From IMG/VR virus record IMGVR_UViG_3300012036_000004, positions 37,736 to 101,735 of that record: a DNA stretch of 64,000 nt; one strand, written 5' to 3'. Position 1 is the stretch's first letter. Each line of letters opens with the position of its first letter. Shown here piece by piece: positions 28,437 through 58,452 of the stretch. A model generated the notes under the pieces. That model ran no database searches, was not told the origin of the DNA, and saw nothing but the letters and a program-made list of their open reading frames with translations. The stretch comes from a virus. A program made the position numbers and the translations under genes.

Positions 28437-28447
28437 AGGGAGAACCC

Positions 28448-30154: not shown

Positions 30155-30155
30155 C

Positions 30156-35620: not shown

Positions 35621-35970
35621 TGGCCCACGATCGCCTTGACCATGTCAGTATTTTTCGCTCCGGCTCCGGCAGCGTCATCATCTCCAACGACACGCTCGGT
35701 CCCATCAACCAGACAACGGCGTGGCTCGTCGAGCATCTGGAGATGGCCCTCGCAGCCTACACCGGCTCGCCTGAAGAAAAGCACGAGATTCTCCATCCGA
35801 TACCCAAGCTGCCCTGGCGGACATCGTCTGGCGAGCGTCTGAACGCGCTACTCATCCGCCTGGCTCGTGTAAGCGATATTGCTGACGCGCTCCCCGCCGA
35901 GTGGTTTGAGGGTTTTCCGGTGAAAAGCGACGACATTTTCTGCGTGTCGCTGACACTGGTGAAGAACTAG
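35620..35970 (+). CDS. Hypothetical protein
   Basis: TAATG-coupled to RuvC. Confidence 0.6.
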   Translation: MAHDRLDHVSIFRSGSGSVIISNDTLGPINQTTAWLVEHLEMALAAYTGSPEEKHEILHPIPKLPWRTSSGERLNALLIRLARVSDIADALPAEWFEGFPVKSDDIFCVSLTLVKN

Positions 35971-36221
35971 GCCTTCGGCGAGTACCGATCGCAGATACCG
36001 TTCGGGTTGATGGAGCCCATCACAATGGCGCACGCCCCGTCCGGTTGGTAGTGGCTGCACTTCGCGCAGTTGGCGTCGGGGTGCGGCGAGCTATCCATGT
36101 ACGCGACGTCTTCGCGCGTGTACTGCTTGCTCTTTCGCTCAGCCGGTACGGGTTCATCCGAAGGGTCGCCGTGGTACGCAAGCTTCATGAAAAGATTGTA
36201 TCCCTGCTCGAACGCCGTCAT
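35967..36221 (-). CDS. HiPIP-like 4Fe-4S protein with shared N-terminal tag
   Basis: VAYMD...CAKCSHY...CAIVMGSINPNGICDRY (four HiPIP-pattern Cys); begins MTAFEQGYNLFMKLA. Confidence 0.75.
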   Translation of the reverse strand: MTAFEQGYNLFMKLAYHGDPSDEPVPAERKSKQYTREDVAYMDSSPHPDANCAKCSHYQPDGACAIVMGSINPNGICDRYSPKA

Positions 36222-36700: not shown

Positions 36701-37086
36701 CGGATGTCCTCTTCAATCTCGTCGAGCTCTTCCCAGCTGTCAGCGCCCTTCACCGCAGCTTCGAGCTCGCGTCGACTCTTCGATGACTTGACGAGTTTGG
36801 CGCTGAGTTTGTCCGCTTCCCGCGACGCAAGATGTGCTTCTCGCATGTACTTCTTCGCGAGCTCTCGGTCCTGCTCCGACTGCGCCAAAAGACGTGACTG
36901 GGAGGCGCGTGCTTCAGCGATCTCGAGGGCAGCCCGGTTGCGTGCTTCTTGTTTCTTTGCCAGAGACCACAGGGACAGCACAATAATACCGAGCCCGGCA
37001 GCCGCGACCCACCACACCCACTTGGTGTACCAGGATCGCTCCTCCGTCTTCTTCTTGAGCTTGGTGTAGGTCTTAGCGAGGCTCAT
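36697..37086 (-). CDS. Membrane-anchored coiled-coil protein (possible i-spanin-like)
   Basis: N-terminal TM followed by a coiled coil. Confidence 0.5.
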   Translation of the reverse strand: MSLAKTYTKLKKKTEERSWYTKWVWWVAAAGLGIIVLSLWSLAKKQEARNRAALEIAEARASQSRLLAQSEQDRELAKKYMREAHLASREADKLSAKLVKSSKSRRELEAAVKGADSWEELDEIEEDIR

Positions 37087-43700: not shown

Positions 43701-43759
43701 TGCCAGAAATCCGATAGCCCGGTCAGCAACGTCTCGCCAGTTGTAGGCAGCTGAGGCAT
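40751..43759 (-). CDS. Baseplate wedge protein
   Basis: 1002 aa following baseplate J; FG.L...YRALI...GPS...IESALN and KPSYT segments. Confidence 0.6.
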   Translation of the reverse strand: MPQLPTTGETLLTGLSDFWHRFFADKDQLNVLYSATEELLGQAYLDIVTQVLNQNLQNVPLFNREFWHLFTIREDELLFEPGEDWPYRLTMQDGLREFVFLLNRIYNPTASFEKDIDFVLVDDEMHWKDDPFEQSDGVPLRQLDIVPTIYRQGTDGVVGVGPTSTFSILGNLQEGADGQVTNVDRFESPSADFTAQDIGRQIVHSNTLGTGPQETRTVTGVLNSTTVFCTPDADTTSGPAALQWALRDEGYFNEFDVGRQIELTNPSDARDTHLYTIDTVVDDGVPTDTSLVVTFTEQIDTVFEDTARIQWSHQSTSRVRQLAYWIPDAFFDRENLYLSFGYLINRFEPSTESYRALIDGIFRYFMLGPSLARIESALNVAVGVPVVREDGEIFQSLDTAPSGLDRVNTNRNSYEIPVGSLRSEIEIGDELDAFQALTDIFEATDYVDRPTWYYGAVIPEELLSGPSVLRRNVDPRLYPLVCGSDKWVCGDPQLYCGADETRFVEPRREGSDVYHTGDESFLRFRDTVFLPEDVGKILTIEDVEYEITNVGTDPDPYATVTDGSTDPFDLTPVYAAATYSGVNPATGDEWEFAAATFVPADVGRLIEVTAAVTITLGLYRIEEVLSPTQVKVVEYDTGAAVAFPADPGFTARLGLRWEVEVRSPLRHSTGYVMMRNYLRAHIFQVSYDYGSYPDLAYPRPEEDIRDVLDAGKPSYTFMLVVPRSQFRDRVQVVDSVEFFGVLNYTDSMQEVDWRVSAGGGSIAGEHYAYSQPAVAWMDSVRRAEFSSITEIPQASEVDKVVVSSALEGGTSPTLTVTFWAWTGMMWVPTGDVEVLDPAGSDLFILDTVGNRIAISVSETGTADADSAGVSFGLIADVPRTVVFVSPTLSSSTGAYIDSTNQFQDTNFFFNVADVLRELIVKVGFTEYRYRITALVDEHTVEVVEAYPGTTPSFVGTTDLEWYIGRPTRTTTPTVCGGVPSDVVKTTPDNYIVPWPVHMMLKD

Positions 43760-46179
43760 CAGATGATCTCGGTAAGAGTAATCAAATCAGGCGACGTCAG
43801 ATAACGCACATTCCGGTTCACGACACCCTGATTCACGGGCGCCTCCAGGCGGTCCTGGGCCAGGGGTGACGACAGAAGCGCCGCGTCGACGCGTACGACA
43901 TCGTCCGTGCTGTACGGAATCGCGCGGCCGTCCGGTGCGTACAACGTGTAGTTAATCTGAACCGGCAGCCGAACTTTCCCGACTTCCGTAGCGTGCTGAT
44001 TACGAAACTCCGTCACGATGTCGCTCGCATCGAGCACCTGGTCTGTCGGGAAGGTGTTGATGAACGTCACCAGCTCGTCTTTCGCACCTGCGATGTCGAA
44101 GAACGCGTCGAAGGTGTCCAGTAACTCAAACCGCAGCTCGAAGCTCAGGTAGACCGGGTGGTCACCTCGGACAAGAGTGTTCGCGCACGCTACTCGGTTT
44201 TGGCGGTCGGCGACAAAATCGTGAATCCCAGCAAACCCTGAGATCGTGTCGTACGTGACGCGGCACGGTTTGCCGTTGTACTTCGCCTTATTGGTCAGTA
44301 CCCAGGAAAGCTGCGTCTCAGCGACTGCTGTAAACGAGCCTCCCTCGGGGTCTGCCAGCGTCAGGATGTTGGGCGGCGTCACGTTCGTGATGAGGTGCTC
44401 CCCTCGATTCACAGCGTTGACTGCCTGCGGAATGAAGATCCGCTTGCCAACGTCGTTAGCGGTGAATGTCGCGCCCGGCACCGTCAGGATGTTGCCTGCC
44501 GAAAAGATTGCGCCAGAGCCTTCTTGTTCCGCGGCGTACCCGACGTCCACTGCAAACATCTGGTAGGCCGACTGCGCCTCTTGAACCGCTGTGTTCGTCA
44601 GCGTGTACTCCAGGTTCGACCCAGACGCAGATTCGGGTTCTCGGTTGACTCGATTGGGGAACTGAACCCGCTGTGTGACCGGGTCGGTGTCCGGGTCTGC
44701 CGGGTCCAGTACCGAAACATCGTGGATACGGTACACCGGCTCCGATGGGAGCAAGACCTGTCCGTCTCTTCGAAAGACTCGAGTAAACTCGCCCGTTGTT
44801 GCCGGGGGTTTCTTATTGACGTACTCCGGCGCGAAGTCCCCGACAGAGTACTCCACGATGCCTTCGTAGATCTCGAACTCAACAGGCGTCTCGACCGTCA
44901 GAGACGACGTGTTCAGCGTCACTGTGTTGGTAGGAGCATTGACGCTGATGATTTGGTAGTCGCCTTCGTTGGCCGGCGTAGGTGCCGACGTGATTCGTAT
45001 GTAGCGCCCCAGGTCATTACTCGAGAACTGCGCACTCACCGAAGTGAACTCATCTGTATCTGTCACACTCCCGTCAGTCAGCGTCGCCCCGTCACGCTCT
45101 TGAATCGGGCGCAAGCCGGGAAACGCCTGTTGGCGCGCCACACGGAGGTGGTACTTCGTGACTTCCTCAATGATGTAGAGCGAGTTCTCCGACGACTCGG
45201 CGTTGCGAATGCGCAGAATGTCGCCCGGCTCAATCGGAAGTGCGCGCCAGTCCAGTACGTTCGGGTCTCGGAACAATGTCAGCGCGCGACCTGCGTCGAC
45301 AAACGAGCCTCCAACAATGCCTTCGAAGGTGCGGCGCTCGAGCAGAGGCGTCGAGATGTAGGCGTCAATGTAGCCGCCAAGATGAAGTTCGATGGCGCTC
45401 GAGAATAGTGCGAGGTCGCGCCGCATTCCATCATCGCCGAATCCCACGACGACGACTGAGTCGATGACAGCGAATTCCTCCTGGAGCACGGTGACAATGG
45501 ATCGGTCCGAGTTCAGGTCGCGCACCGTAATGGCTTCCGGGACGCGCTGGAGAAGCTCTTCGGGTGTCTCCGTGTCGGTCGCCCCGGAGAACCGGAAATC
45601 GTTTTCGACGAAGGTGGCGAATCGGTTGAACTTGTCGAAGAAGGCGAAGGTACCCGGCTCGATCTCGTAGTCACGGCCGGGGAGCTCAGCAATCACGGGC
45701 ACGCGCAGCGTGTAGTCGACGATCTGTCCGTCTGTGTCGACGGTAGGAATGAGCTCATCTGCGGAGTAGACCAGGTTGAGCGTCGTATCGAGTGTGAAGC
45801 GAAGCCCCGCCTCGCGAGTGAAGGTCGTGCTAAACGGGATCGTGCCTGAGTGGCGCTCAGAGAAGTGAATCACCACCGAGCCGCGGGCCGGGCGTCCATC
45901 TCGCTTGGTGACGTACCAGTTTGCGACGATGTTCTCGACGGCCTCTGCGAAATCGGTCGGGTTCTCGAGTCCATTGACCAGGTTGAGGCTTGTACCTCGT
46001 CTAATGTCGTCTGCTTCGCCGCGGAGCACCGAGAAAAGAGCGCTGAGCGCACCGATCGTGTGGTCTCGGGTCACCGAGCCTGGTGTGAAATCCGCGTCGG
46101 GGTAAAGCTCTGTGAGAACCGCCGTCATGAACGCCTCGGCGTTCGCGCGGTCCTGGTCGTCAATCGTGATGTCTGCCAT
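43759..46179 (-). CDS. Baseplate J-like protein
   Basis: DFTPGSVTRD, R..G..ARGSV, VIAE.PG.DY.I, F.GATDTET.EEL..R. Confidence 0.8.
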   Translation of the reverse strand: MADITIDDQDRANAEAFMTAVLTELYPDADFTPGSVTRDHTIGALSALFSVLRGEADDIRRGTSLNLVNGLENPTDFAEAVENIVANWYVTKRDGRPARGSVVIHFSERHSGTIPFSTTFTREAGLRFTLDTTLNLVYSADELIPTVDTDGQIVDYTLRVPVIAELPGRDYEIEPGTFAFFDKFNRFATFVENDFRFSGATDTETPEELLQRVPEAITVRDLNSDRSIVTVLQEEFAVIDSVVVVGFGDDGMRRDLALFSSAIELHLGGYIDAYISTPLLERRTFEGIVGGSFVDAGRALTLFRDPNVLDWRALPIEPGDILRIRNAESSENSLYIIEEVTKYHLRVARQQAFPGLRPIQERDGATLTDGSVTDTDEFTSVSAQFSSNDLGRYIRITSAPTPANEGDYQIISVNAPTNTVTLNTSSLTVETPVEFEIYEGIVEYSVGDFAPEYVNKKPPATTGEFTRVFRRDGQVLLPSEPVYRIHDVSVLDPADPDTDPVTQRVQFPNRVNREPESASGSNLEYTLTNTAVQEAQSAYQMFAVDVGYAAEQEGSGAIFSAGNILTVPGATFTANDVGKRIFIPQAVNAVNRGEHLITNVTPPNILTLADPEGGSFTAVAETQLSWVLTNKAKYNGKPCRVTYDTISGFAGIHDFVADRQNRVACANTLVRGDHPVYLSFELRFELLDTFDAFFDIAGAKDELVTFINTFPTDQVLDASDIVTEFRNQHATEVGKVRLPVQINYTLYAPDGRAIPYSTDDVVRVDAALLSSPLAQDRLEAPVNQGVVNRNVRYLTSPDLITLTEII

Positions 46180-46631
46180 TACGTACTCACCTTCCCTGCA
46201 AGGATGACCTGCAGGCGCTGGCCCGCTTGATTCTGTATCAGAACATACACAGATACCGAGCTGTTGTCCTCGAAGATGATGGACGTCAACTCTGCCGACT
46301 GTAGGATCTCCGTAGGGTCCTCAGGCGGAAAGCGAGACTGAATCGAATTGATGTCGGCCGTCGCCTTGGCCACCGAGCTGTATACGATCTGCTGGATGTC
46401 TGCCCGGTCCGTCACGTTCGAGCCGATGAGCCCTGCGAACGACGTTCCGTACTGGCGGCTGCTCAGGTCCGTTCCCTCTTCAGTGAGAAACGCCTTTATC
46501 CACTTGTTGATGAGCTTCTGAAGCCCGGCGATGCCGATGTGTTTCTGATAGCCATACGTGAACGTGCCTCGTTGTACGCCTTGCTCCACTTCCGGAAGGA
46601 GCTCAAAGTATGTGTCGTAGGTCGTAGGCAT
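46179..46631 (-). CDS. Baseplate wedge GPW/gp25-like protein
   Basis: G.QKL...IKAFLT..GTD....YGT.F..LIGS motif; directly upstream of baseplate J. Confidence 0.7.
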   Translation of the reverse strand: MPTTYDTYFELLPEVEQGVQRGTFTYGYQKHIGIAGLQKLINKWIKAFLTEEGTDLSSRQYGTSFAGLIGSNVTDRADIQQIVYSSVAKATADINSIQSRFPPEDPTEILQSAELTSIIFEDNSSVSVYVLIQNQAGQRLQVILAGKVST

Positions 46632-48217
46632 CAGAACTCCGATCCGTCCAGGGCGAGGGCTGTATTACCAAATGCAGTGCGAACTTGCCGCTGCGAATCT
46701 TCCTGAGAAGTGTAGGCGGATCGAGGCAGCGAAGCGATCTGGTCTGCGCGGCTCAGTGCCACCGACATGTCATAGGCCGTTTGTGCCGACGTCTGTGCAT
46801 TCGGGGTCGACGCCGTCAACGCCAGTGATGCGTACGACTCTCTTGCCTCGTTGAGCTTCTTCGTCTCCGCCTTCGTGACGGCGCGTACCTCGCCCGGTGC
46901 CGGCGCTGTCCGCAGAATGCCGCTGGGGTCAATCGGTACAGGGCGTGTCGAGATGTTGGCGTTCTCAGACGTCTCTCCGTCGAACAGAAGTGAGGCGTCG
47001 CCTCGGAGCTCGAAGTAGAGGACGGGGTCTTGTCGTGCTCTCGAGATGGCCAGAAACTCCTGGAACACTTCATCGAACGCGCCCTTTGTTTGACCTGCTC
47101 GAGCGATGACGTCTCCTGGCAGAACCGAATCACCTGTCGAGACAAGCACTTCTCCGAGATGTCCATACGACGACACCAAAAACCCCTCGTGGTTGATGGT
47201 GACGACGTTGCCTCGCTCTTTGGTGACGGTGACGCTGACGACCTGGCCTCTCGCCACGGCGTGTACGAACTGATTGGGGTCGCCGGCTGTGTCGTACTCC
47301 ACGCCTTCAAAGAACTCGCCCTCAAACCCGGACGGCGTGCCGAATCCTTTGACAACTGCAATCGCAGCCAGCGGCAGCGAGTAGCTGACGCGGTCGACCT
47401 CCGATGGGAACTCTGCAGTCAGCGTCTCGAATCGACCCTGACGCAGGACGCGGATGGTGCGTGTTCTCGACCCTGACGCAGCAGCCGGGTCCGCTGGGTC
47501 TGTTTTGAACCCGGTGGCGCCGCCTTGCTGTGTGATGGACAAAGCTTCCTGAGCGGTAGCCTGAGCCGCCTGAGCAGCGCTCTGGCTTGGGACAAGTATC
47601 TGCGGCGAGCCTGCTTTGGGTGGACAATCCGGAAGCCCGGACGCTGACGGTGCGTTGTACTGACGCCGACTGGAGCTCGGCAGGACCAATGTCGGGTCTG
47701 CGACCTGCGCTTTTCCGTCGGACCACTTCTTGGCGAGACGTCGGAACTTGTTGAGGTACGCGAGTGACGAGCCGCCGAACCGCTCGGAGAGATACTGCTC
47801 CCCCGCTTGCTGGCCCAGGTTGTTCTGAGTCTGAATGTAGCGTTTGAGCGTACCTGGTCCGGATTTCCAGAGAATGGAGATCTTTTCCGGGTCGTAGTTG
47901 TGTCGAGTCGGGCCGCGGGCGTAGCGCTCGGCGTATCGAAGAAACGAATCGATCGAGAGATGTCCATCGCCGTCATGGTCGGTGTTGCGTCGTCCAACGT
48001 CCTTGGCGTTAGCGACGCCGATCTGAAGAAGACCGTAGTACTGCGACGGCTTTCCATTGCGGATGCTGTGCGCGTCCTGGTCCCCTTTTGACTCGATGCT
48101 GATGAGGGTCAGTATGACCCAGTTCGGATACTGCTTGGCTGTGAGGCCCTGGTCCTCTCGGATCTCCTCGATCGCAGGAATCCAACGCCGAATCCTGTCA
48201 TCCGTCGCTTTACCCAC
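46631..48217 (-). CDS. Tail-associated lysin: SLT-like transglycosylase + degenerate M23-like domain
   Basis: ISIESKG...YGLLQI; HAVARGQV...GNVVTINH...YGHL...V..GD.V..GDVIA..G...LYFELR. Confidence 0.7.
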   Translation of the reverse strand: MGKATDDRIRRWIPAIEEIREDQGLTAKQYPNWVILTLISIESKGDQDAHSIRNGKPSQYYGLLQIGVANAKDVGRRNTDHDGDGHLSIDSFLRYAERYARGPTRHNYDPEKISILWKSGPGTLKRYIQTQNNLGQQAGEQYLSERFGGSSLAYLNKFRRLAKKWSDGKAQVADPTLVLPSSSRRQYNAPSASGLPDCPPKAGSPQILVPSQSAAQAAQATAQEALSITQQGGATGFKTDPADPAAASGSRTRTIRVLRQGRFETLTAEFPSEVDRVSYSLPLAAIAVVKGFGTPSGFEGEFFEGVEYDTAGDPNQFVHAVARGQVVSVTVTKERGNVVTINHEGFLVSSYGHLGEVLVSTGDSVLPGDVIARAGQTKGAFDEVFQEFLAISRARQDPVLYFELRGDASLLFDGETSENANISTRPVPIDPSGILRTAPAPGEVRAVTKAETKKLNEARESYASLALTASTPNAQTSAQTAYDMSVALSRADQIASLPRSAYTSQEDSQRQVRTAFGNTALALDGSEF

Positions 48218-48229
48218 GGCCGTCTCCTA

Positions 48230-49306
48230 CTACACCATTTGGTCCTGAAACATGTCGACCAGTTGTCGCTTTCGGTACGACAGTTGCCCCTGCGTCAAGT
48301 TGGTCTTCTTACGCAATTCCTTGTTCGAGAGAATAGGCTTCCCCGAGTATCCTGTCGAGTGTTCGAAGATGAGCTTGTCTTCCGGATTCATGTCGTAATA
48401 GAGCATGTCGACCATGCCGTCGCCCGAATCTGAACCCCACACGCTCTGGTTCTCGAACATCCCCGCGCCCATGTCTCCGGACTCGATGAGCTCGGCATGC
48501 TGGGCCTGTTGCACTTTCGACAGCGTCTTGGGAGCCCACGCCAGGTGGTCCGCCAACTCCTGGTTGGTCGGCTCGCGCCCGTGGACGTCCATGAGTTGTT
48601 GATTCGCCTTGTGCAGATTCTGAACCTTGAGCTTCTTGTACTCAGGCAATCGCACTGCATCCTGGTGCGTGTAGACTTTGCGGGACAGCTTCTTGAGTCG
48701 ATTGGTGACGTGCGTTGCGAGCGCAGCCCCCGCATACGGGTCGTATGACTTGATGGCCTCGAGCGCCAAAGACTTCGCTTTCGACTCCAGCACCGGTCGT
48801 GCAATCGCTCCACTCCACTTGTTCACTTCGACCTGAATCACCGGGTCGAGTGCTTTCATCAGGGGCTTGAGATTCTGTTTGGACGGGTTCTTATTGTACT
48901 CCCGCCACAACTCGAGGTCCTTCTCTTTGCGCTCAGCCCGGGTCATCGAAGTCTTCTCGACTTCAGCCTCCGGGCGAAACCCAACCATGCCGAGTACGTC
49001 GTCGTCGGCACCTTTTCTCGGGTCGTGCGTCTCGTGCGTTGCTCGAGCCTCGAAGAATTGCGTTCGTGACTTGTTCGTGACGACGTCGGGCTTTCGACTG
49101 GACTCGATATTCGTGATCTTGACGCCTGTTTCTTCGGCGACTTCCCGCTCGGCGGCCTCCCGGGGTGTCTCGCCTGCTTCAATACCGCCGCCGGGTCGCT
49201 TAATCTCGTCGTCACCGGGCTCGGCGCCGGACAGCACATTGCCCTCATCGTCTCGGATGTTGACTTCGACGCGTTGGCGAAGTGCTTCGCTAAGTTTGTG
49301 GATCAT
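48230..49306 (-). CDS. Nudix hydrolase - sigma-70-family sigma factor fusion
   Basis: Nudix box GGIEAGETPREAAEREVAEETG. Sigma region 2 (LEAIKSYDP..GA.LATH), VRLP, region 3 (GREPTNQELA), region 4 (EDKLIF...Y...LSNKEL...LTQGQLS). Confidence 0.8.
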   Translation of the reverse strand: MIHKLSEALRQRVEVNIRDDEGNVLSGAEPGDDEIKRPGGGIEAGETPREAAEREVAEETGVKITNIESSRKPDVVTNKSRTQFFEARATHETHDPRKGADDDVLGMVGFRPEAEVEKTSMTRAERKEKDLELWREYNKNPSKQNLKPLMKALDPVIQVEVNKWSGAIARPVLESKAKSLALEAIKSYDPYAGAALATHVTNRLKKLSRKVYTHQDAVRLPEYKKLKVQNLHKANQQLMDVHGREPTNQELADHLAWAPKTLSKVQQAQHAELIESGDMGAGMFENQSVWGSDSGDGMVDMLYYDMNPEDKLIFEHSTGYSGKPILSNKELRKKTNLTQGQLSYRKRQLVDMFQDQMV

Positions 49307-49917
49307 TTCGAGCCTCGTGGCTTCATCTGGTCGAGGAACTCCTGTGCCTTCTCGTAATGGGACCGTGGCTCAGCGAACTCGAGCGACGGCTTCGGCTTGT
49401 CGAGCCTCTCTTTCTTCTTCGCCACCTTCTTTCGCTGATGCTCCTCCTCTTCGGCCCGTTCTTCTTCTTCCACAAGCGCCGGGTCGAGTGTCACCCCTGC
49501 TATCGGCTCAGAGAACTCGCCTTGTACGCTCCAGCCGCCGTACTCCGTCACGCTCTCCTGTGTCATGCCGCCGATGCTTCCTTCCATCGGAAAGCCAGCA
49601 GGAGGCATCGCCCCATACATGAACCGTTGGTTCGCGCGGTCAGACACCTGAAGCTCGAACAGCACCTCGTCCTGCTCATCGACGATTGCCTCGAGCGCTT
49701 CGATGCGTTCGTACAGGTCCCCAAACGTTTGACGTGACTTGTCTTGAATGTCTTTGTCGACCCGCACGCGGTCTTTCGCTTCCAGTGCTGCGCGCTCTCG
49801 CTCGTTGCACGACTTCACACCTTCGCCCACCGCCGTGACAGACACCAGCACCGCCAGCGCGAATGTGCCCCAGGTGAATTTATTCGTCTTCTTCTTCTGC
49901 TCGGGTTCTTCGGACAC
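49303..49917 (-). CDS. Membrane-anchored hypothetical protein
   Basis: N-terminal TM and coiled coil. Confidence 0.65.
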   Translation of the reverse strand: MSEEPEQKKKTNKFTWGTFALAVLVSVTAVGEGVKSCNERERAALEAKDRVRVDKDIQDKSRQTFGDLYERIEALEAIVDEQDEVLFELQVSDRANQRFMYGAMPPAGFPMEGSIGGMTQESVTEYGGWSVQGEFSEPIAGVTLDPALVEEEERAEEEEHQRKKVAKKKERLDKPKPSLEFAEPRSHYEKAQEFLDQMKPRGSK

Positions 49918-49935
49918 GGGAGCTCTCCTCGACGT

Positions 49936-50196
49936 TCATTGATTTGCGTTGAGCGCCAGGAGCATCAGCTGCGCTTTGGGGTCCATGCCCCATTGCTCCG
50001 GAAGGTTGTCCGGCATCTGATACGCGTCTTCATCTTCCTGGAGACGTTTGTGAAGCCCCATCGAGCCCAGGCCCACTGCAGCGACAGTCGGGATGGTCGC
50101 TCCGCTGCCTATCGCGCGTCTCGCCACAGAAGATGCTTCGTCCGTCAGGCCAGCGAGCTTCATGAAATTGATATACCCTTTTTCGAAATTAGTCAT
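49936..50196 (-). CDS. Tag-family small protein
   Basis: Starts MTNFEKGYINFMKLA. Confidence 0.7.
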   Translation of the reverse strand: MTNFEKGYINFMKLAGLTDEASSVARRAIGSGATIPTVAAVGLGSMGLHKRLQEDEDAYQMPDNLPEQWGMDPKAQLMLLALNANQ

Positions 50197-50197
50197 A

Positions 50198-50500
50198 TCA
50201 ACTGAAGGCTCCCTGATAGGTCCGCATGCGTGGGTCTGCCGGGAGGCTTCTACGCATAGCACCTGCCGACGGCGACGCCTTGGCGATGTCGTCGAGCTTG
50301 CCTGTCATCTTGGGCGCCTTGCCGAGCGCACCTCGAAATGCATCTGCAACCGCATGCACGCCTTCGCGCCAGGGCATCTGGGTCCCTGCTTCGAAGAGCT
50401 CGTCTTTCAGACCGGCGTCTTTGTACAGCTCAACAAGGACGTCGTCCTCGTAGCCGGCGACTTTCAAGAAGCTGATGTATCCGTCTTCGAAATGCGTCAT
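50198..50500 (-). CDS. Tag-family small protein
   Basis: Starts MTHFEDGYISFLKVA. Confidence 0.7.
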   Translation of the reverse strand: MTHFEDGYISFLKVAGYEDDVLVELYKDAGLKDELFEAGTQMPWREGVHAVADAFRGALGKAPKMTGKLDDIAKASPSAGAMRRSLPADPRMRTYQGAFS

Positions 50501-50501
50501 G

Positions 50502-51713
50502 TCAGTCGTCCAGTACTTTGCCCAGAAGCCCAGCACCTAGCGTGCCTGCTCCCAGGATAGCGCCAGCTCGGCCTAGTTGTCGAATCTTAGGTTTCGCTTC
50601 GAGAAACGATGCTACGTGCGGGATGGTCTGGCCATACCGACGGTGCTTGACCTTCGTGTGGTCAACAGTCGCCTGAAGAATGTCATCCGGCAACTCTTTC
50701 AGGGACGTGGCAGGATTCGCGTGCGGAAGCTCCGTCTCGCGAATCAGCTGAGAGACTGCTTCCTGCGGCGATTTGTAGAACGCGTCATAGTGTTCGGCAG
50801 ATCCAGGTCCCCACTTCACCGGACCGCCGATGGTGTTCGGCAAGAATCCGCTTCGCATCTCTTCGATGTACTTACGCCCGGAGACGGGAGGGCGGCCCAC
50901 GGGGTTGACGACGTTCTCACGCAAAATGTTGTGTCCCCGAGTCGCGTAGTCGTCGATGAACTTTTCCAGATCTGCTCGACTGGCGCCTTCGCCTGGCGCC
51001 GCGATGTCCATGAACTCCTCCAGACGGGCTTTGCCGCCTTGCGCCACGTTCGGAAGACGCGCGCCGACCTCGTCTGCACCTAATCCACCTGCGCCGCCCG
51101 CCACGCCTACGCCGATGAGCGCATCGTTGGCGTCGAGGCCTTCTTCGGCGAGCTTCATGAAGCTGTAGTAGCCCCGCTCGAATGGTGACATGTGTGCTTC
51201 CTTCTCAGTGGGGCCCAGGCGAGCTCGGCCAATTTCTTTGTTGCCCTGAACAACCCGAACGTCTTTCACCGTCCAGCGCCCAAAGGGGAGTTTTGCGACC
51301 CGCTCCCAGTTCTCAGGGAGTTTCCGGTCCTCATGGTACTCGAGCGTCATGTGCGGCACGAAGCCGTGTTTTTGCTCATCGAGTAGGTCCGCTTCGTTGA
51401 GCGCCTTGTAGATCGACGCGCGGAGCTCGTTGAGTCCTACGCCGTTTGGCTGAAGGACGCGGACAACGGCATCCGGGTTGTCGAACGCCGCAGCACCGTT
51501 GCACTTCATCTGAAACGGTTCGTGGTTCTGCACCACCGGCTCGATGATCTCAAGCGCTCGCTTCGCTTCCTCACGAGTTTTCTGGCCCAAGTACACCAAC
51601 GTGACGTGCAGATTATCCCACTGCGCAAGGTGCGTATGCGGACCCAGCAAATCGCGCCACCCCTTGGGAGGGTAGATCGCGACCATCGTGCTGTTCTCGC
51701 CTACGTCTGCCAC
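50502..51713 (-). CDS. 2H phosphoesterase (LigT/Acb1-like fold) fused to a tag-family domain
   Basis: LHVTL...PHMTL; internal MSPFERGYYSFMKLA at 51191. Confidence 0.8.
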   Translation of the reverse strand: MADVGENSTMVAIYPPKGWRDLLGPHTHLAQWDNLHVTLVYLGQKTREEAKRALEIIEPVVQNHEPFQMKCNGAAAFDNPDAVVRVLQPNGVGLNELRASIYKALNEADLLDEQKHGFVPHMTLEYHEDRKLPENWERVAKLPFGRWTVKDVRVVQGNKEIGRARLGPTEKEAHMSPFERGYYSFMKLAEEGLDANDALIGVGVAGGAGGLGADEVGARLPNVAQGGKARLEEFMDIAAPGEGASRADLEKFIDDYATRGHNILRENVVNPVGRPPVSGRKYIEEMRSGFLPNTIGGPVKWGPGSAEHYDAFYKSPQEAVSQLIRETELPHANPATSLKELPDDILQATVDHTKVKHRRYGQTIPHVASFLEAKPKIRQLGRAGAILGAGTLGAGLLGKVLDD

Positions 51714-51727
51714 GGGTGTCTCCGTTG

Positions 51728-52015
51728 TTACTCGTCGTCTGCCATCGCGCTCATCGCTGCGCCTGTTCCCAGCGCGCCAACACCGAGTCCGCCGAGGCGG
51801 TTCATCGCATCACGGTCCTTGACCATCTGGAGCACTTCCGGCGTGATTTGATGCTTGATTTTGGGGTGACGCATCGTCTCTTGGAGTAGCGCGGGCAGAA
51901 GTGCTGCCTGCCCCATACGCGAGCGAGCTGCCTGGCTCATCGCGTCCATGGCACTCTCAGGTAAGCGCATCGCGAGCTTCATGAAGCTGTTGTAGCCTTC
52001 TTCGTACGGTGTCAT
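51728..52015 (-). CDS. Tag-family small protein
   Basis: Starts MTPYEEGYNSFMKLA; Gly-rich hydrophobic C-terminus. Confidence 0.7.
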   Translation of the reverse strand: MTPYEEGYNSFMKLAMRLPESAMDAMSQAARSRMGQAALLPALLQETMRHPKIKHQITPEVLQMVKDRDAMNRLGGLGVGALGTGAAMSAMADDE

Positions 52016-52230
52016 TGGTTGCCCATCGCCATGTTCATGAACTGCGTGTACCCGCGCTGAAATGGGGACAGTTGGCTCTCTTTTTCGAAGTCATGAGACG
52101 GGTCCATCTTCTTGTACAGACTCATGATGTACGCATGGTTATCGCCTTTATCCTCATTCTCGGCGATCGCCTTGGCCTTCTCCCACTTCTCTTCGTCTTT
52201 GTCGGTATGCACCACGTTGTTCGGCATCAC
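52012..52230 (-). CDS. Small protein with C-terminal copy of the tag
   Basis: DEEKWEKAK...AYIMSLYKKM; ends LSPFQRGYTQFMNMAMGNQ. Confidence 0.7.
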   Translation of the reverse strand: MMPNNVVHTDKDEEKWEKAKAIAENEDKGDNHAYIMSLYKKMDPSHDFEKESQLSPFQRGYTQFMNMAMGNQ

Positions 52231-52610
52231 TCACCTATCCCTTGGCGTGCTCCAACGATGTTACCGCCGAATGCACCGCCTGCTAGTCCCAGAAGTCCCA
52301 GACCCAACGCTTTGCGCGGGTCTCCTTTCATTGCTCGACCGATACCGTATCCGATACCGCCGCCTGCTGCACCTCCCCCGATCATACCCACGCCAGAGCC
52401 GAAACCGGCCGACGCTACGTCGCCCATGTCGCCGCCTCCGAGTCCTGCGCCGATTGCAGCGCCGAGCGGTCCGGGAACAAACGTCGCTCCCAGGGTTGCA
52501 CCGGTTCGCGCGCCTGATTTGTCTTCTTCCATGCCGAGTGCGCCTTTGGCTTCGTCCAGAATGCCTGCGCACTTCATGAAGGTGTAATAGCCGTTTTCGA
52601 AGGGAGTCAT
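52227..52610 (-). CDS. Tag-family glycine-zipper protein
   Basis: Starts MTPFENGYYTFMKCA; GxxxG repeats. Confidence 0.72.
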   Translation of the reverse strand: MTPFENGYYTFMKCAGILDEAKGALGMEEDKSGARTGATLGATFVPGPLGAAIGAGLGGGDMGDVASAGFGSGVGMIGGGAAGGGIGYGIGRAMKGDPRKALGLGLLGLAGGAFGGNIVGARQGIGE

Positions 52611-52840
52611 GTCGCGTCCTTTACTTGTGCGGTGTCCATGCTTCCTGCTCCAGGTCCAGTGCCCGCAGCAGTGACGTGCTCACTCAGGTCTTCCATCTTA
52701 ATGTCTTTGATTTCGTCGGGAACGTCGAGCTCGACTTCCGCGTCGCCCATAAGCGTCTCGAGCTTGGCGCCAATCAGATCGGCCGCCATGTCCGAGGCGA
52801 GCTTCATGAAACTGTAGTAGCCTTGTTCGTACGGTGTCAT
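52607..52840 (-). CDS. Tag-family small protein
   Basis: Starts MTPYEQGYYSFMKLA. Confidence 0.7.
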   Translation of the reverse strand: MTPYEQGYYSFMKLASDMAADLIGAKLETLMGDAEVELDVPDEIKDIKMEDLSEHVTAAGTGPGAGSMDTAQVKDAT

Positions 52841-52848
52841 CGTGTGTC

Positions 52849-53625
52849 CTAGCTCCAATAGCTCTCATTCGACGCCCAGGCAGGTTGAGCTGCTTGCCGC
52901 TTAAACTCCGGCGCCTCCGAAGGAAGCGGGCTGCTACGTACCTTGTTGCGGATGAACCGATCGGGTCGTGTGATTTTGTCGAGAAGACCGGCATGTTTGA
53001 GGTGCTCAGGCATCTCAACGTCGAGGCGGACCCGAGGAAGCATGCCACGTTCGTTGGCGTGGTGAAGACCGGCCGCTCCTGCGCCGAGTGCGCCGAGTCC
53101 GCCGGCAGCCATCAACGCCGGGGTGTAGTCAGGCTCTGCATTGCGCTCCATCACGCCCTTGCCCACGTTGTAGGCGGCGTGCCCGGTCGCTGCGGCGCCC
53201 AGAAGACCCAAAAGTGCAGTACCCGGATGGCGTCGAAGGTGTTGCGGGAGGTCGCTGAGCGCTCGACTCAGGACTTTTCCGCGTCGGCCTTGTCCTTGAA
53301 CCAGGTCTACGAGGTCTTCGACTGGGAGTCCGTCCTCCATCGCTACTTGCGGGAGTCGTTTCCCGGTGTAAACGTTTTTGAGGCCTTCGAGAACACCTGC
53401 GCCGCTGTCGGGCGGAATTCTTTTCAGTCCCAGAAGCTGATCTGCAGTCACCGGTGCGTGTGCGAGACCTACCCCGAGACCCAAACCGTGCAGTGCCATC
53501 TGCGAGTCGGTTTGCTCCCCTTTGACGGCACGAATCGTATTCTTCAGGTCATCGCCGTTTCCAGCGAACCCGGCGAATCCAGCCGTCTTTAGAAACAAAA
53601 AATAACCCTGCTCGAACGGGTCCAT
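52849..53625 (-). CDS. Tag-family protein with Gly/Ala-rich hydrophobic segments
   Basis: Starts MDPFEQGYFLFLKTA; GAGGAG RBS. Confidence 0.72.
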   Translation of the reverse strand: MDPFEQGYFLFLKTAGFAGFAGNGDDLKNTIRAVKGEQTDSQMALHGLGLGVGLAHAPVTADQLLGLKRIPPDSGAGVLEGLKNVYTGKRLPQVAMEDGLPVEDLVDLVQGQGRRGKVLSRALSDLPQHLRRHPGTALLGLLGAAATGHAAYNVGKGVMERNAEPDYTPALMAAGGLGALGAGAAGLHHANERGMLPRVRLDVEMPEHLKHAGLLDKITRPDRFIRNKVRSSPLPSEAPEFKRQAAQPAWASNESYWS

Positions 53626-53699
53626 AAAATCTCCTCTGTGATGGAGACACCATACCGTCGAGCAGGGTCCAAGCCAAGCGGTCGTTTACGGGGTAAACG

Positions 53700-53942
53700 C
53701 TACTCGGACTCGTCGGCCTCCTTGGCCTCTTCCGTGGCAGCCTTGCTGGCACCATCCGTGGCTTCTTCCGTGGCGGCATCTGCGCCAGTGTCACCCGATG
53801 GGGTGGCAGCGGCATCTTCTTGTGCTCCTGCGTCGACTTCGGCGACTGCATCGCTGTCCGGCATGACGTCGGACGACTTCTTCTCACATGCAGTGGCCAT
53901 AACGGCGAACACGGCAAACATAATCAGTAGGTGCTTTTTCAT
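53700..53942 (-). CDS. Small acidic lipoprotein
   Basis: MKK + hydrophobic stretch + ATAC lipobox. Confidence 0.75.
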   Translation of the reverse strand: MKKHLLIMFAVFAVMATACEKKSSDVMPDSDAVAEVDAGAQEDAAATPSGDTGADAATEEATDGASKAATEEAKEADESE

Positions 53943-53974
53943 GATGTTCCTTGGGTTCTATTCATACGCCGTCG

Positions 53975-56821
53975 CTACGCCTTGAATGGCTGCAGCGAGT
54001 TGTAGACCTTGCGTCGAAATGCGAGCAGTCTCTCTTCCCAATTGCGGCGCGTGTCCGTTCCAACGGGTCCGCAGGGTAGACCGTCTGCGCTCAGATTAAT
54101 AGGCTCAACAGGAACAGCGCTGAGGTTGAAGATTTTCACGTAATATTGCGCGCCTTTACCTTCCTTCTTGTTGCTCGGAGATCGGACTCCGTCTCGAACT
54201 CCTCGTGCTCCCTGAAGGTCGATGTACTGGTCAAGCGTGCAGATGGGGCGGCTTCCGTACGCAAAGGCTTTCAGCGAGTTGTTCATCAGCGGCTGGTATG
54301 AATCGTTGACGACGTAGGTCGGCGGCTCGGCGGTCTCGATATTCGGCGTGCCTTTGAGTAGCGGCTGCCCCGAGCTCCCCCGGAGTTCGCGGTTCAACTG
54401 GGCCGCATCGCGTTTTTTAGCTGCCTCGAGCTCAGCAGTCAGCTCAGAGAACTCTTCAACCTTTCGGTCGTAGGCATCTCGCGTCCCTGGCGAGTACTGA
54501 CGACGCTGAGCAGCGACAATCGTCGACAGGTCCTTCTTCGCCTGCTCGATGTCCGACGCGATGTCTTGCGGAGACCGATCGGTCTGCACTGCGTCTTCAG
54601 GGGGCTCCGTGAACCCGATGCGTTCCACTGTTCCATCCGGCTGGCGAATGCTGAGCACGTTGAAGATGTCGAAAATGATGGGGTCAGGCGTCGTAACCCC
54701 GGTGTCGCCCCAAAACATCGTCTGATAGTACTCGCGCGCCGGGTTGTTCACCTGGAAACGCTCTCGCAGCTCTCGAATCGGGTGTTGCGGGACCGCAGAC
54801 GGGGTCTCGGCCGTAATCTCAGTTACCCCGTCTTCGAAGTACTGGTCGCTCAGCGTCTGAAAGAACTCGCCGAACGTCTGCGCGTGGGTAAACGACACGC
54901 TCGTCGACATGCTCTCCTGTCCAAACTGGTGCTGGACCGATGTGAAGTAGCAGAACACGTGGTTGTTCGATTCTTCGTTGTCGATGACTACGCCAGGCAG
55001 CCCAGCCACCACATTCGGGTTGTACGGACCTGCGATGCCTCCGTTTCGCCGGCTTGCACGGGTTCGTTCGTGTTCGTAACGAGCGTAGATGCGCTGAATC
55101 GAGCCTTCCTGGTTCGGTGGACCCGAGCCGCGGTTTGCGAGGTGCCCAAACCAGGGCGGCGTCGTAATCTGATTGTAGACAGGGCCCTTGAAGTACTCCT
55201 CGAACTGAATCAGGAAGTTGTGGTGGTTGATTTTGGCGCCGGTTTGCCGGTCCACCAGGCGTTGGTTAGCCTGAAGCGGGTAACCCACTGTCAGAGCAAA
55301 CTTATCAAGCGCTGTCTTCGACGCTGACTGGCCTCCGTCGTTCAAAAGGTTGTAGATGTGCGGATCACCGATATAGGTCCGGGTCGGCTGAAGTGCAAAG
55401 TTCTCATCGTAGGTGAACTGCTCGTACATGCTCGGCCAGTAGACATTGAAACTCGGCGGCACCGAGAAAATCGTCTGCGGCTTCGTCATGTAGGACGCTA
55501 GCACCTTCTCAGACCCCTGCGCGTTGCTGGTAAGAAACCGCGTCTTCGTAACGGCTTCTTCTTTGGCCTGCTCCGCCTGTGCGACCCGTTGCTTTTGTCG
55601 CTCGAGCGCATCTTTGGTGCCGGGCGTCGGGTTTCGTTCTACAACGGCTTCCTGCTTCTTGAGCGCCTCTCGCGCATCCCGTAGCGCCTGGTCTGCTTCG
55701 ACGACGGGCTCCTGGAACGCGCTGTAGTCTCCTCCCTGAATCTTGAAGTTCTCCAGGTCCTCCTGCAGCGACACCACGAGCTGTGCTTGCTGTCGAAATA
55801 GCTCGTTGATCTCTTCAGTGGCGTTACTGCGTTGTGCGGCCGAAATCTCGGTCAGGCGTGCCCGCTCTTGCTTGAGTTCGTTCTGCAGTTCTTCGAGACT
55901 GACGTCGGAACGCTGTGTGTTCTGGAACTCTACCGAGGCAGGCTCGTTCGCGTCTGATTTGAATCCACCGATCACCTCTCGAGTGGCCTGATTGACGTTG
56001 AGCACCGGAGGATTCGGCAGCATCGCCAGCTCGTAGTAGACGTGCTGGAAGATGTTCTGGATAACCTGGTACATCGACCCGGTCATACCCAGTCGAGACG
56101 CTGCATCGGCCAATGCGTTGGTGCCCTCGGTGTACTGAGCCGCCCGGAAGATGGGAAACGCCGGCACTTCGCCTGTCGGAGCTACGGTCTCCACGTAGGC
56201 GCTGGGCACGAAGCGTTTACTGAACTGGGTTCGCTGGTTCCACGGCTTGAACCACTCCGTGATGATGACCGAGCGCTCGTTAGTAATGACCGTGTCGTCA
56301 AGCAGCAGGCGAAGCACGTTCTCGACGACGTCGTAAGGTCGCTTGATGTCGCCGTCGCCCGTCAGACCTGCACGCAGCAGAGAATGGTGCGGGGCAAACG
56401 GATTGACGACGCCACTGGCTGCCGCCTGGTCTTGTCCGACAGACCCTTTGGAGATAGACGCCAGGGTGGCGATGAAATGCGGGAAGATGCGCCCCAGTGC
56501 CTCGATCAGGTCGACTGCGGTGAACGAAATCGAGCGGCCTGTTGCTGTAGAGCGGTACTGGTACGCTACAATCTCGCCGTCAAACGCCAGGCGGAACGGA
56601 TCGCCTTCTTCAGGGTTGTTCGTCGAGCGGTACGGGTCGATGGCGAAGATAGTGACGCGCACGCGGTCGTCTGCCCCGACGCGCTGCATGATTTTGTCGG
56701 CCGGAATGGAGATCGACGCCTGCGGTATCTGCCACACACCGCTACTGACGCTGCAGCTCGTCGCAGGGATCTCAATCCCGTTGAAATAGACCACCCAACC
56801 CGCTCTGACATGATCTGACAT
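53975..56821 (-). CDS. Putative baseplate hub/tail protein
   Basis: Start MSDHVR (TAATG-coupled); VYFNGIEIP...FDGEIV...SF.AVD and NP.VVAGLPGVV...V.H.F patterns; tail-module context. Confidence 0.55.
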   Translation of the reverse strand: MSDHVRAGWVVYFNGIEIPATSCSVSSGVWQIPQASISIPADKIMQRVGADDRVRVTIFAIDPYRSTNNPEEGDPFRLAFDGEIVAYQYRSTATGRSISFTAVDLIEALGRIFPHFIATLASISKGSVGQDQAAASGVVNPFAPHHSLLRAGLTGDGDIKRPYDVVENVLRLLLDDTVITNERSVIITEWFKPWNQRTQFSKRFVPSAYVETVAPTGEVPAFPIFRAAQYTEGTNALADAASRLGMTGSMYQVIQNIFQHVYYELAMLPNPPVLNVNQATREVIGGFKSDANEPASVEFQNTQRSDVSLEELQNELKQERARLTEISAAQRSNATEEINELFRQQAQLVVSLQEDLENFKIQGGDYSAFQEPVVEADQALRDAREALKKQEAVVERNPTPGTKDALERQKQRVAQAEQAKEEAVTKTRFLTSNAQGSEKVLASYMTKPQTIFSVPPSFNVYWPSMYEQFTYDENFALQPTRTYIGDPHIYNLLNDGGQSASKTALDKFALTVGYPLQANQRLVDRQTGAKINHHNFLIQFEEYFKGPVYNQITTPPWFGHLANRGSGPPNQEGSIQRIYARYEHERTRASRRNGGIAGPYNPNVVAGLPGVVIDNEESNNHVFCYFTSVQHQFGQESMSTSVSFTHAQTFGEFFQTLSDQYFEDGVTEITAETPSAVPQHPIRELRERFQVNNPAREYYQTMFWGDTGVTTPDPIIFDIFNVLSIRQPDGTVERIGFTEPPEDAVQTDRSPQDIASDIEQAKKDLSTIVAAQRRQYSPGTRDAYDRKVEEFSELTAELEAAKKRDAAQLNRELRGSSGQPLLKGTPNIETAEPPTYVVNDSYQPLMNNSLKAFAYGSRPICTLDQYIDLQGARGVRDGVRSPSNKKEGKGAQYYVKIFNLSAVPVEPINLSADGLPCGPVGTDTRRNWEERLLAFRRKVYNSLQPFKA

Positions 56822-57282
56822 TATACGCTGACCAAGAATCCGAGATCGTTGTACGCACCTACGACACACATCCCAGCAACGACCTGAACTCGGTATCGCC
56901 CGTCGTCCTGAAGGAACGTATCGAGCCACATGTCCGTAATTGCCGGGTCCAGCCCCGCATTGCGAAGGTCAGCCATCGCAGGCCGCACCACTCCGTAGTA
57001 TGGGGCAAGCGTTCGGTCAACCTCGAGCAGACGACGCTTCGTTCTAAAAAGAGTCGACCGGTAGACGTCGGAGAAGTAACCCTCGAACAGCGCCCCGGGC
57101 TCAAACTGCGCCGCAATCTGCACCAGTCGGCGTGCGCGAGCCGTAGCGTTGTTGTCCGTCAGAGTCAGGGGCAGTGCGACTTGCAGCAGATTATCGAGAC
57201 GGCGAATGCTTACGCCGTTGATGAGCTGCTCTTCGAGTGCTGTCGTCACCAGGTCTGTGTCCTCGGCGTACTCATCAGGCAT
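56821..57282 (-). CDS. Hypothetical tail-module protein
   Basis: 153 aa, coupled. Confidence 0.65.
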   Translation of the reverse strand: MPDEYAEDTDLVTTALEEQLINGVSIRRLDNLLQVALPLTLTDNNATARARRLVQIAAQFEPGALFEGYFSDVYRSTLFRTKRRLLEVDRTLAPYYGVVRPAMADLRNAGLDPAITDMWLDTFLQDDGRYRVQVVAGMCVVGAYNDLGFLVSV

Positions 57283-58225
57283 TCAAGAGCTCCGGTGGAG
57301 GAAGCGGCACCTGCGAGCCTGAGCGGAACAGGTCTTCTGTGCGCTGGTTGGTGGGTACCACGCCGGTCTTCTCTTCGATTTCAGCCGGGTTGTAGCCCGT
57401 ACGAATCCCCAGGTCGAGGTCAGGGACCAGATTGCCTGTCTGAGCGCGTTGCCGAGCGTCCCCAAGCGAGGGAAGCGTCAGTGTTTCGCTCTGCAGCGTC
57501 TGGTCATCCAGCGAATCGAGCTGCGAGTCCTGCTGTTGACGTAGAATGTCTCGTGCGCTTGCGAGCTCGAGCGACTCCGTGACTCGAACGGCGACCTGGA
57601 CCTCTTTGACCAACAGCGAGAAGCTACCGGAGACCGAGAGCTCGTTGCTCGCCCTGAGCGCTGTCTGCGTATTGGTCAGAGAACCGATGACACGTCGAGT
57701 GTCGTAGGCCAACGTGACGGGCGTACCTGCCTCAGCGAGTCGAGTTCCGCGGATGATGTTCTCGTAGACGATGTTCCAGGCGTCGTACCACTCATCCTGC
57801 TGCGAGTTGATGAGCCCGATCTGATAGGACCACACCGGAGCGGCCTGCCCGAAGAAATAAGCGATGTGCCCGTCGCTCAGAACCTCGGAGACCTGTACCT
57901 TCTCGCGAAGTGGCTCTTGGGCTGCCTGCAGGAAGAAGCTCAGGTAGCCCTTTCCGCCGCTCGAGCCGAACGTTCGTGCCATCGCCTGTGCGTACCCTCT
58001 CGCTCGAGGCGGGATAGCATCCAGGTAGTTCCGGTAGGCTGCCGGGTCCGAAATATCGATGTACAGCCGAGCCTGTGTATCCAGCGTCTCCAGGTGGTTC
58101 GATGCGTTGTACTTCGGCGTAGCTGCCGGGTACGTCGCATAGACTCCTTTCTGCGCGTTGGGGTCGTCGCTGTTGAGCTGTTTGTCGGGCGCCGGATCAT
58201 TTCCGCCGTAAATAGGACCGCTCAT
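57275..58225 (-). CDS. Putative tail-tube initiator/baseplate protein
   Basis: FFLQ..QE..REK.Q...AYFFG; follows the tape measure. Confidence 0.5.
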   Translation of the reverse strand: MSGPIYGGNDPAPDKQLNSDDPNAQKGVYATYPAATPKYNASNHLETLDTQARLYIDISDPAAYRNYLDAIPPRARGYAQAMARTFGSSGGKGYLSFFLQAAQEPLREKVQVSEVLSDGHIAYFFGQAAPVWSYQIGLINSQQDEWYDAWNIVYENIIRGTRLAEAGTPVTLAYDTRRVIGSLTNTQTALRASNELSVSGSFSLLVKEVQVAVRVTESLELASARDILRQQQDSQLDSLDDQTLQSETLTLPSLGDARQRAQTGNLVPDLDLGIRTGYNPAEIEEKTGVVPTNQRTEDLFRSGSQVPLPPPELLNA

Positions 58226-58452
58226 CGGGACACCCTCTGGGTCACAGTCGGAATGAAGGTCTTCTGGTCAACCAGAAGCTGCGCTCGAGACACCAGGCTC
58301 GGCATGGTAATCTTGGCTCGCTGTCGAACGCGGTGGTTCTGCGTGATATTGCGGTGATACATGCGAAGAACCTCAGGCGCGCGGGCGTGCACGAGCTTGT
58401 AGGTCTGCTGTCGAATCTGAGGACGCTGTGCTGTGGAGTTGATGACTGGCAT
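58222..58452 (-). CDS. Small basic hypothetical protein
   Basis: 76 aa, coupled on both sides. Confidence 0.6.
   Translation of the reverse strand: MPVINSTAQRPQIRQQTYKLVHARAPEVLRMYHRNITQNHRVRQRAKITMPSLVSRAQLLVDQKTFIPTVTQRVSR

Follow-up and report, generated by a model that had tools for sequence, protein, structure and literature searches.

Why should nine reading frames of one virus, whose products show no other detectable kinship, share the same 15 residues? The question is raised by a stretch of 64,000 nucleotides (hereafter the window) that makes up the final 64 kb of IMG/VR record IMGVR_UViG_3300012036_000004, which has 101,735 bases and a CheckV completeness of 57%; positions are those of the window unless given as genome positions. 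Genes for an RNA polymerase in which beta and beta' are fused, for PolA, a primase, an SNF2 helicase and a reverse transcriptase are present in the record. Its head block includes a capsid protein (MCP) and a prohead protease (phrog_18299, E=9e-10), and its baseplate genes, for baseplate J, a lysin (SLT+M23) and a gp5-like spike, are those of a contractile tail. The shared 15-mer, called the tag below, is a modular, ancestrally N-terminal element, and it ends in a triplet that also marks the proteins of the head block.

The tag follows the pattern M-[TSD]-x-[FY]-E-x-G-Y-x-x-F-[ML]-K-x-A. A six-frame motif scan of the record gave exactly nine matches, all on the minus strand, and a profile hidden Markov model (HMM) built from 17 tags (the nine window copies and eight from relatives) scores them at 32-41 bits, the next best site in the 101,735-base record reaching 5.6 bits. 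Loose regular expressions and the profile revealed no further canonical copy in the whole record, and a separate six-frame search again gave nine. Scan and profile thereby reproduced the nine copies listed, with their coordinates, by a first-pass annotation of the window. Its placement of eight copies in the tail module and the ninth 14 kb away also stands, the eight genes lying between a hub-like gene and those for sigma, lysin and baseplate J. Seven copies are N-terminal and begin with ATG (first codons at 53625, 52840, 52610, 52015, 50500, 50196 and 36221), one is internal (first codon 51191, in the open reading frame (ORF) 50502-51713) and one is C-terminal (first codon 52071, a CTG, 19 codons ahead of the stop of ORF 52012-52230). 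For seven copies, the distance from the stop of the preceding gene to the ATG is -4 to +8 nt, so the N-termini are true and the longer GTG/TTG extensions of these ORFs are calling artefacts. The tagged genes are the following.

52849..53625, minus strand: 258-aa protein, first gene of the cluster; tag at 53581-53625; glycine-zipper segment at residues 167-191.
52607..52840, minus strand: 77-aa acidic protein; tag at 52796-52840.
52227..52610, minus strand: 127-aa protein; tag at 52566-52610; three glycine-zipper segments; orthologue P0012.
52012..52230, minus strand: 72-aa ORF; degenerate C-terminal tag at 52027-52071 (33 bits), with CTG/Leu for Met and Asn for Lys.
51728..52015, minus strand: 95-aa protein; tag at 51971-52015; C-terminal glycine zipper.
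50502..51713, minus strand: 403-aa protein made up of a 2H domain (residues 29-156), a K-E-A triplet, the internal tag at 51147-51191 (residues 175-189) and a 214-aa body.
50198..50500, minus strand: 100-aa protein; tag at 50456-50500.
49936..50196, minus strand: 86-aa protein; tag at 50152-50196; glycine zipper; orthologues P0007 and P0011.
35967..36221, minus strand: 84-aa tagged HiPIP; tag at 36177-36221; HiPIP domain at residues 32-84; orthologue P0013, also tagged.

G7, Y8, F11 and A15 are invariant in all 17 tags, K13 is present in 16 of the 17, as is an ending of the form K-[LVCMT]-A. Its net charge lies between -1 and +1 (0 or -1 in 14 of 17 tags), an acidic stretch follows it, and it is amphipathic, with a hydrophobic moment of 0.4-0.6. 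Two familiar kinds of signal were considered and rejected. Having no hydrophobic core, RR motif or lipobox, the tag is not a Sec, twin-arginine (Tat) or lipoprotein signal. The amphipathic helices by which MinD and FtsA, for example, are targeted to the membrane are cationic; the tag lacks the net positive charge of this type and is followed by acidic residues.

The cargoes are as diverse as the first-pass annotation had described. Its HiPIP cargo is supported by matches of the 84-aa protein to PDB 3h31 (E=2.5e-8) and to PioC 6xyv (E=1.2e-4), with four Cys aligned; the protein gave no Pfam match at an E of 1 or less, and its gene ends a late operon, 14 kb from the cluster. Likewise, the glycine-zipper cargoes are real, segments being found by a strict rule in four tagged proteins (those of 258, 127, 95 and 86 aa). 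The proposed 2H phosphoesterase cargo needs a correction: the domain is genuine (PF13563, E=9e-18; PF02834, E=6e-9; two H-x-T motifs, H-V-T and H-M-T) but its place is upstream and not downstream of the tag, and the body that follows the tag ends in a C-terminal Gly-zipper-like helix. Apart from the 2H domain, searches of Pfam and PHROGs gave no match for the tagged bodies, nor for most of the structural genes.

Bodies of paralogues show no detectable similarity (global scores of 24 or less), and their tags share 8-13 of 15 residues. Between orthologues the tags are 73-87% identical as against 26-53% for the bodies; P0016, the orthologue of the 258-aa protein, has 41% identity in the body and 11 of 15 residues in the tag. 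Relatives are rare: a search of 1.84 billion representative proteins with the tag profile gave 16 matches, namely six window proteins, two short fragments of these and eight others. The tag is N-terminal in all eight others, as it is in P0020, which was found in a later search. The HMM scan of genome and relatives suggested by the first-pass annotation yields nine copies in the record, and N-terminal tags in relatives. In every one of the ten tagged proteins from relatives the tag stands at the N-terminus. P0010 and P0014, at least one further kind of cargo, are tagged and have no counterpart in this phage, so that the cargo content varies between relatives; P0015 and P0011 are encoded on an 83-kb JGI contig, and P0012 and P0013 on one of 116 kb.

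The two copies that are not N-terminal can both be traced. P0015 and P0020 are stand-alone proteins of 231 aa with the tag as their N-terminus; their identity to the section of the 403-aa protein that follows its internal tag is 54%, and the internal ATG has a good Shine-Dalgarno-like sequence, GAGAAGGAAG, 7 nt upstream. Since the relatives start at the tag and the Shine-Dalgarno-like sequence is kept, we take the internal copy to be an ancestral N-terminus captured by a 2H gene fusion. The C-terminal copy in the 72-aa ORF is followed by four residues and a stop, which overlaps the ATG of the next tagged gene, and is probably a remnant. Given the ancestry of the internal copy and the degeneracy of the C-terminal one, the earlier suggestion that the tag is position-independent is not supported. 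The rest of that suggestion, a capsid-targeting or processing signal, agrees with a modular N-terminal tag conserved as a peptide whose K-x-A end matches the head triplet.

Searches from other starting points added little. The b229 body as query found a single relative, and the 2H domain alone none. A protein search with the tag alignment returned the window's own proteins only, other candidates having crowded the search, and degenerate DNA patterns scanned against viral, metagenome and genome collections gave only single matches at chance level. Two AT-rich metagenome contigs (L013:638-681 and L015:3880-3923; OBII01000061.1 and ERZ894203 NODE-1006) encode a protein that starts with M-T-S-F-D-E-G-Y-N-F-F-V-K-Q-A-G (MTSFDEGYNFFVKQAG). 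Present once in each locus, this N-terminus reaches 11-12 bits with the tag profile and is either a chance match or a very distant tag.

Is the tag conserved as a peptide or as DNA? In 280 pairings of codons that specify the same residue in two of the nine copies, the codons differ in 148, where the codon usage of the genome would give 149.1; at the invariant positions each of the four Gly codons and each of the four Ala codons is used. The conservation at synonymous sites by which the first-pass annotation would have recognised a DNA repeat is not seen. Selection acts on the tag peptide, not on its DNA.

The C-terminal triplet of the tag leads to the head genes. The head block is taken as the 12 minus-strand genes that run from the capsid gene up to, but not including, RNA polymerase beta'C, at genome positions 19324-33260, before the window. 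K-[VLIM]-A occurs 27 times in this block, against 5.7±2.2 in within-protein shuffles, and 24 times in the rest of the genome, where 22.2±4.5 are expected; the reversed triplet occurs 9 times in the block against 5.9. Within the first 36 residues K-x-A is found in 9 of the 12 head-block genes, capsid protein and protease included (2.4 expected; 0 of 400 shuffles reach nine); among the genes elsewhere the figure is 8 of 80 (Fisher p=4.7e-6). At residues 27-29 lies the sole K-x-A of the capsid protein, for which an AlphaFold2 model from a single sequence had a pLDDT of 29 and was of no use. RNA polymerase beta'C has two K-Φ-A sites at the junction to its Gly-zipper extension. Furthermore, the protein in the position of a scaffold, encoded between the protease and capsid genes, starts with a divergent tag, M-T-T-L-L-T-E-Y-A-E-L-Y-K-L-A, and contains glycine zippers; an Atlas search with it was without a match. 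Three Gly-zipper proteins near the gp5-like spike have divergent N-terminal tag variants that end in K-M-A or K-T-A.

Genome positions 22475, 10848, 10258 and 9693 (L005:3475; L004:10848/10258/9693), minus strand, outside the window: four divergent tag-like N-termini (K-L-A, K-M-A, K-T-A).

All four of these proteins have Gly/Ala-rich zipper-like stretches, of which two pass the strict rule, and glycine zippers are also found in the C-terminal region of the protease. Outside the head block a single protein is strongly enriched in K-x-A: a 337-aa minus-strand protein of the replication module (27423-28436), with 13 K-x-A against 3.0 expected (z=6.3), whose gene adjoins a DUF2201 metallopeptidase/VWA gene.

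The triplet is also present in cultured relatives. With the capsid protein as tblastn query, the matches were Salmonella phage Arash, of 180.8 kb (41.7% identity), and the Vibrio phages D69, D181 and D148 (35.7%); the protease domain matches these phages as well. The MCPs of Arash and D69 have K-E-A at residues 27-29, where K-x-A is found in this phage as well. An N-terminal K-x-A is present in 6 of 7 head genes of Arash (gp220-226) and in none of the 13 tail genes that follow (OQ632216.1 145210-151607), and in 7 of 8 head genes of D69 (L035:14771-20984). All three phages, divergent as they are, retain the K-Φ-A signature, which is head-block-specific. Its retention over such deep divergence fits a protease site.

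Arash also shows what the neighbourhood of the tag cluster may contribute to the virion. The genes flanking the cluster, and the ORF that separates it from the sigma gene, are as follows.

53975..56929, minus strand: 984-aa baseplate-hub-like protein, directly upstream of the cluster; weak blastp match to Arash gp8.
49303-49917: 204-aa ORF between the cluster and the Nudix-sigma gene.
48230..49306, minus strand: Nudix-sigma fusion (Pfam NUDIX and Sigma70_r3), 37% identical to Arash gp10, one gene downstream of the cluster.
46631..48217, minus strand: SLT and M23 peptidoglycan hydrolase (Pfam Peptidase_M23, E=4e-14).
43759..46179, minus strand: baseplate J-like wedge protein (Pfam PF04865; phrog_6, E=7e-15); matches Arash gp13.

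Four proteins of the window have matches in Arash: the hub-like protein in gp8, the Nudix-sigma fusion in gp10, a 316-aa protein in gp6 and baseplate J in gp13. In the slot of the tag cluster Arash has only the 96-aa gp9. LC-MS (mass spectrometry coupled to liquid chromatography) of Arash virions lists 116 proteins, some of them probably carry-over, among which are RNA polymerase beta (which has more spectra than any other protein), beta', sigma gp10 and hydrolase gp8 (PMC10585845). Because Arash virions hold homologues of the proteins that flank the tag cluster, the baseplate operon of this relative encodes packaged non-structural proteins. The Arash supplements are at the level of gene tables, and the coverage column of the paper is no guide to N-termini. 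Arash also has abundant virion proteins encoded among tRNA and early genes (gp95-gp100, OQ632216.1 54867-58971), which have K-x-A within 3-27 residues of the start (e.g. M-S-L-H-K-L-A and M-E-K-Q-A) and Gly/Ala-rich hydrophobic stretches; these are candidate internal or ejection proteins.

For the 984-aa protein, Atlas feature and structure neighbours are gpD/gp44/VgrG-like, which we take as a lead only. Neither this protein nor alignment A2 as query found related loci in IMG/VR and JGI metagenomes, and promoter and terminator scans gave results at chance level. Between the hub gene and the first tagged gene lies an 80-aa acidic protein (53700-53942) whose leader resembles that of a lipoprotein (…V-M-A-T-A-C). 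Two small membrane proteins are encoded directly upstream of the tagged HiPIP (36218-37086): one, of 160 aa, combines a signal peptide with a Gly-zipper transmembrane (TM) segment at its C-terminus, and the other, of 129 aa, has an N-terminal TM segment and a coiled coil. Together they look like a spanin or lysis pair.

What, then, might the tag do? The reading we favour, with about even confidence, is that it acts as an N-terminal prohead-targeting propeptide comparable to the capsid targeting sequence (CTS) of phage T4, removed at K-Φ-A, which would load small proteins into the virion. The tag would recruit varied small proteins into the assembling particle, most likely into the prohead core. 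Its aromatic face (F/Y4, Y8, F11 and M12 around the invariant Gly7) may dock on a common partner, which could be a scaffold or core protein, the protease, the portal, or like helices on other core proteins. The head-maturation protease would then cut after the terminal K-Φ-A and free the cargo inside the capsid, to exit with the DNA at infection. Most of the cargo would be glycine-zipper proteins, which could build or pierce a membrane conduit; the remaining cargo would consist of acidic peptides, the HiPIP and the body fused to a 2H phosphoesterase in this phage.

Several observations weigh against a prohead propeptide. Docking, cleavage, packaging and ejection of the tagged proteins are steps that we infer, and K-x-A as the motif (P1 Ala) at which an uncharacterised family of prohead proteases would cut is a candidate derived from statistics, including the 27 head-block sites, that depend on block limits set after the data were seen and on crude gene calls. 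The tag cluster lies within the baseplate operon, running from the hub to sigma, lysin and baseplate J, and not in the head module; a destination in the tail lumen or baseplate would fit the gene order equally. The canonical tag is absent from the complete genomes of Arash and D69, and the tagged bodies have no homologue in Arash; as both phages share the K-x-A head signature without the tag, the tag is not required by the head architecture. An AlphaFold2 model of the 403-aa fusion has a pLDDT of 47, with a low-confidence tag helix at residues 177-190. Finally, a HiPIP as capsid cargo is unexplained. HiPIPs require cofactor insertion and are usually located in the periplasm, and the tagged HiPIP has no Tat leader, its N-terminus consisting of the tag and an acidic linker without an RR motif.

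The absence of the tag from Arash, in spite of the same head type, can also be read as pointing to the infected cell rather than the virion. The tag might be an interaction or oligomerisation helix of fast-diverging small membrane or envelope proteins, with a role in superinfection exclusion, lysis control or an assembly platform, its match to K-x-A being coincidental. Most of the bodies have glycine-zipper, TM-like helices, the tag is amphipathic to the degree given above, and a lipoprotein and a TM coiled-coil protein are encoded nearby. Such a coincidence would nevertheless have to produce an invariant A15 and a K13 in 16 of 17 tags, both of which match the head signature. The same tag is borne by a soluble HiPIP and by acidic peptides, and with its neutral-to-acidic charge and the acidic stretch behind it, it differs from the cationic helices of MinD and FtsA. 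We consider a role confined to the cell rather unlikely.

The gene order suggests a destination in the virion other than the head. The tag could dock cargo in the hub, tube or spike complex, in the manner of the N-terminal signal peptides of extracellular contractile injection systems or the effector motifs of T6SS, from where it would be expelled first on tail contraction: eight of the nine tagged genes lie between the hub-like 984-aa gene and those for sigma, lysin and baseplate J, the Gly-zipper genes with divergent tags adjoin the gp5-like spike gene, and payloads of PVC/Afp particles enter the tube by N-terminal signals (PMC9054023, PMC11495950). The K-Φ-A end of the tag, however, matches a signature that is head-block-specific and missing from tail proteins, and a tag-like N-terminus is found on the protein encoded between protease and MCP. 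The lumen of a phage tube is normally occupied by the tape-measure protein, and no Pvc15-like loading ATPase is encoded beside the cluster: there was no AAA+ match among the genes from 43759 to 62360, and a weak AAA_5 hint (E=0.004) lies in another module (25414-26760). Loading into the tail thus seems quite improbable to us.

At the level of DNA, the F-M-K codons form an 8-bp palindrome, TTCATGAA, in seven copies, extended to 10 bp in four, two of which reach 14 bp; in these two (51151-51164 and 51975-51988) the S-F-M-K-L codons make up the perfect palindrome AGCTTCATGAAGCT. All four Ser codons before the palindrome are AGY, against a genome AGY share of 0.285, and the octamer occurs only twice more in the record. 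These two patterns could be taken to favour a DNA- or RNA-level repeat (a regulatory site, a recombination sequence or a structured 5' coding element) with peptide conservation secondary. We consider this extremely improbable, as synonymous sites are fully randomised (148 against 149.1), the palindrome is explained by the preferred codons TTC (75%) and AAG (65%), the N-terminal half of the tag is non-palindromic yet equally conserved, and relatives retain the peptide while residue 14 varies; the palindrome and the AGY pattern are probably by-products of codon usage.

If the tag is a propeptide for the prohead, a bolder version can be formulated, to which we give little credence. Tag and K-Φ-A would form a two-part code, an address and a P1-Ala cut site, for the packaged proteome of an undescribed lineage related to Arash. 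From an expandable cargo cassette in the baseplate operon, the next host would receive glycine-zipper proteins that form pores, as well as a finished Fe-S redox protein, the HiPIP, brought to the envelope by ejection and not by Tat export. In that case the 15-mer would lend itself to protein delivery by phages, as a packaging tag both compact and transferable. The simpler proposal, that the tag is a packaging signal, would already allow a direct test of whether it can, as a portable tag, carry foreign proteins into phage particles. Furthermore, the K-x-A signature gives a prediction for the cleavage specificity of a prohead protease family that is uncharacterised, and offers a possible rule for spotting processed head and ejection proteins in these phages of roughly 180 kb.

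How does the tag compare with known loading signals? PVC and Afp particles offer an N-terminal loading signal, diverse cargo and cargo genes beside contractile-tail genes (PMC9054023, PMC11495950). Compared by description only, their signals are about 20-50 residues long and, in the abstracts, are not described as one shared 15-mer; the Pvc15 ATPase is needed, and it is the tube lumen of a DNA-free particle that is loaded. A tail-lumen signal of this kind fits in part, namely the gene position but not the head-specific triplet. In phage P1, an N-terminal signal of at most 30 residues suffices for entry of DarB into the capsid (PMC9024508); that signal is known for a single protein and not as a motif conserved across a family. 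The phiKZ-like giant phages SPN3US and 201phi2-1 (PMC10052503, PMC5694885) resemble this phage in being large, in packaging RNA polymerase (here by analogy with Arash) and in having many head proteins with N-terminal regions that hold several copies of a short motif. Their ejection and inner-body proteins have long, dissimilar propeptides cut after Glu, whereas here one conserved 15-mer is reused, and the phiKZ type of RNA polymerase is split whereas the one encoded here is a beta-beta' fusion.

The closest parallel is to the internal proteins IPI, IPII and IPIII of T4. The T4 CTS consists of ten N-terminal residues that bind the prohead core and end in a gp21 cleavage site, and it is the only part common to these diverse proteins (PMC9026906, PMC3012670). 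In both cases a short N-terminal peptide is found on otherwise unrelated proteins, a terminal triplet marks head proteins (the gp21 site in T4, K-Φ-A here, where cleavage is inferred), the cargo sets vary among related phages, and the genes lie outside the head module. The two differ in that the tag has 15 residues instead of 10, without sequence similarity, and a putative P1 Ala (K-Φ-A) in place of the Glu of L/I-x-E. At least nine copies are found here, in one tight operon inside the baseplate genes, and they sit on glycine-zipper proteins and a HiPIP rather than on basic anti-restriction proteins; packaging and cleavage are predicted here only. No T4-like head genes were detected in the record, the nearest MCPs being those of Arash and Vibrio D69. 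Judged by sequence, the tag is an analogue and not a homologue of the T4 CTS. If it is a packaging signal, it would be the clearest sequence-defined capsid-targeting label outside the T4 group, longer and more conserved than the CTS and used at least nine times in a single genome.

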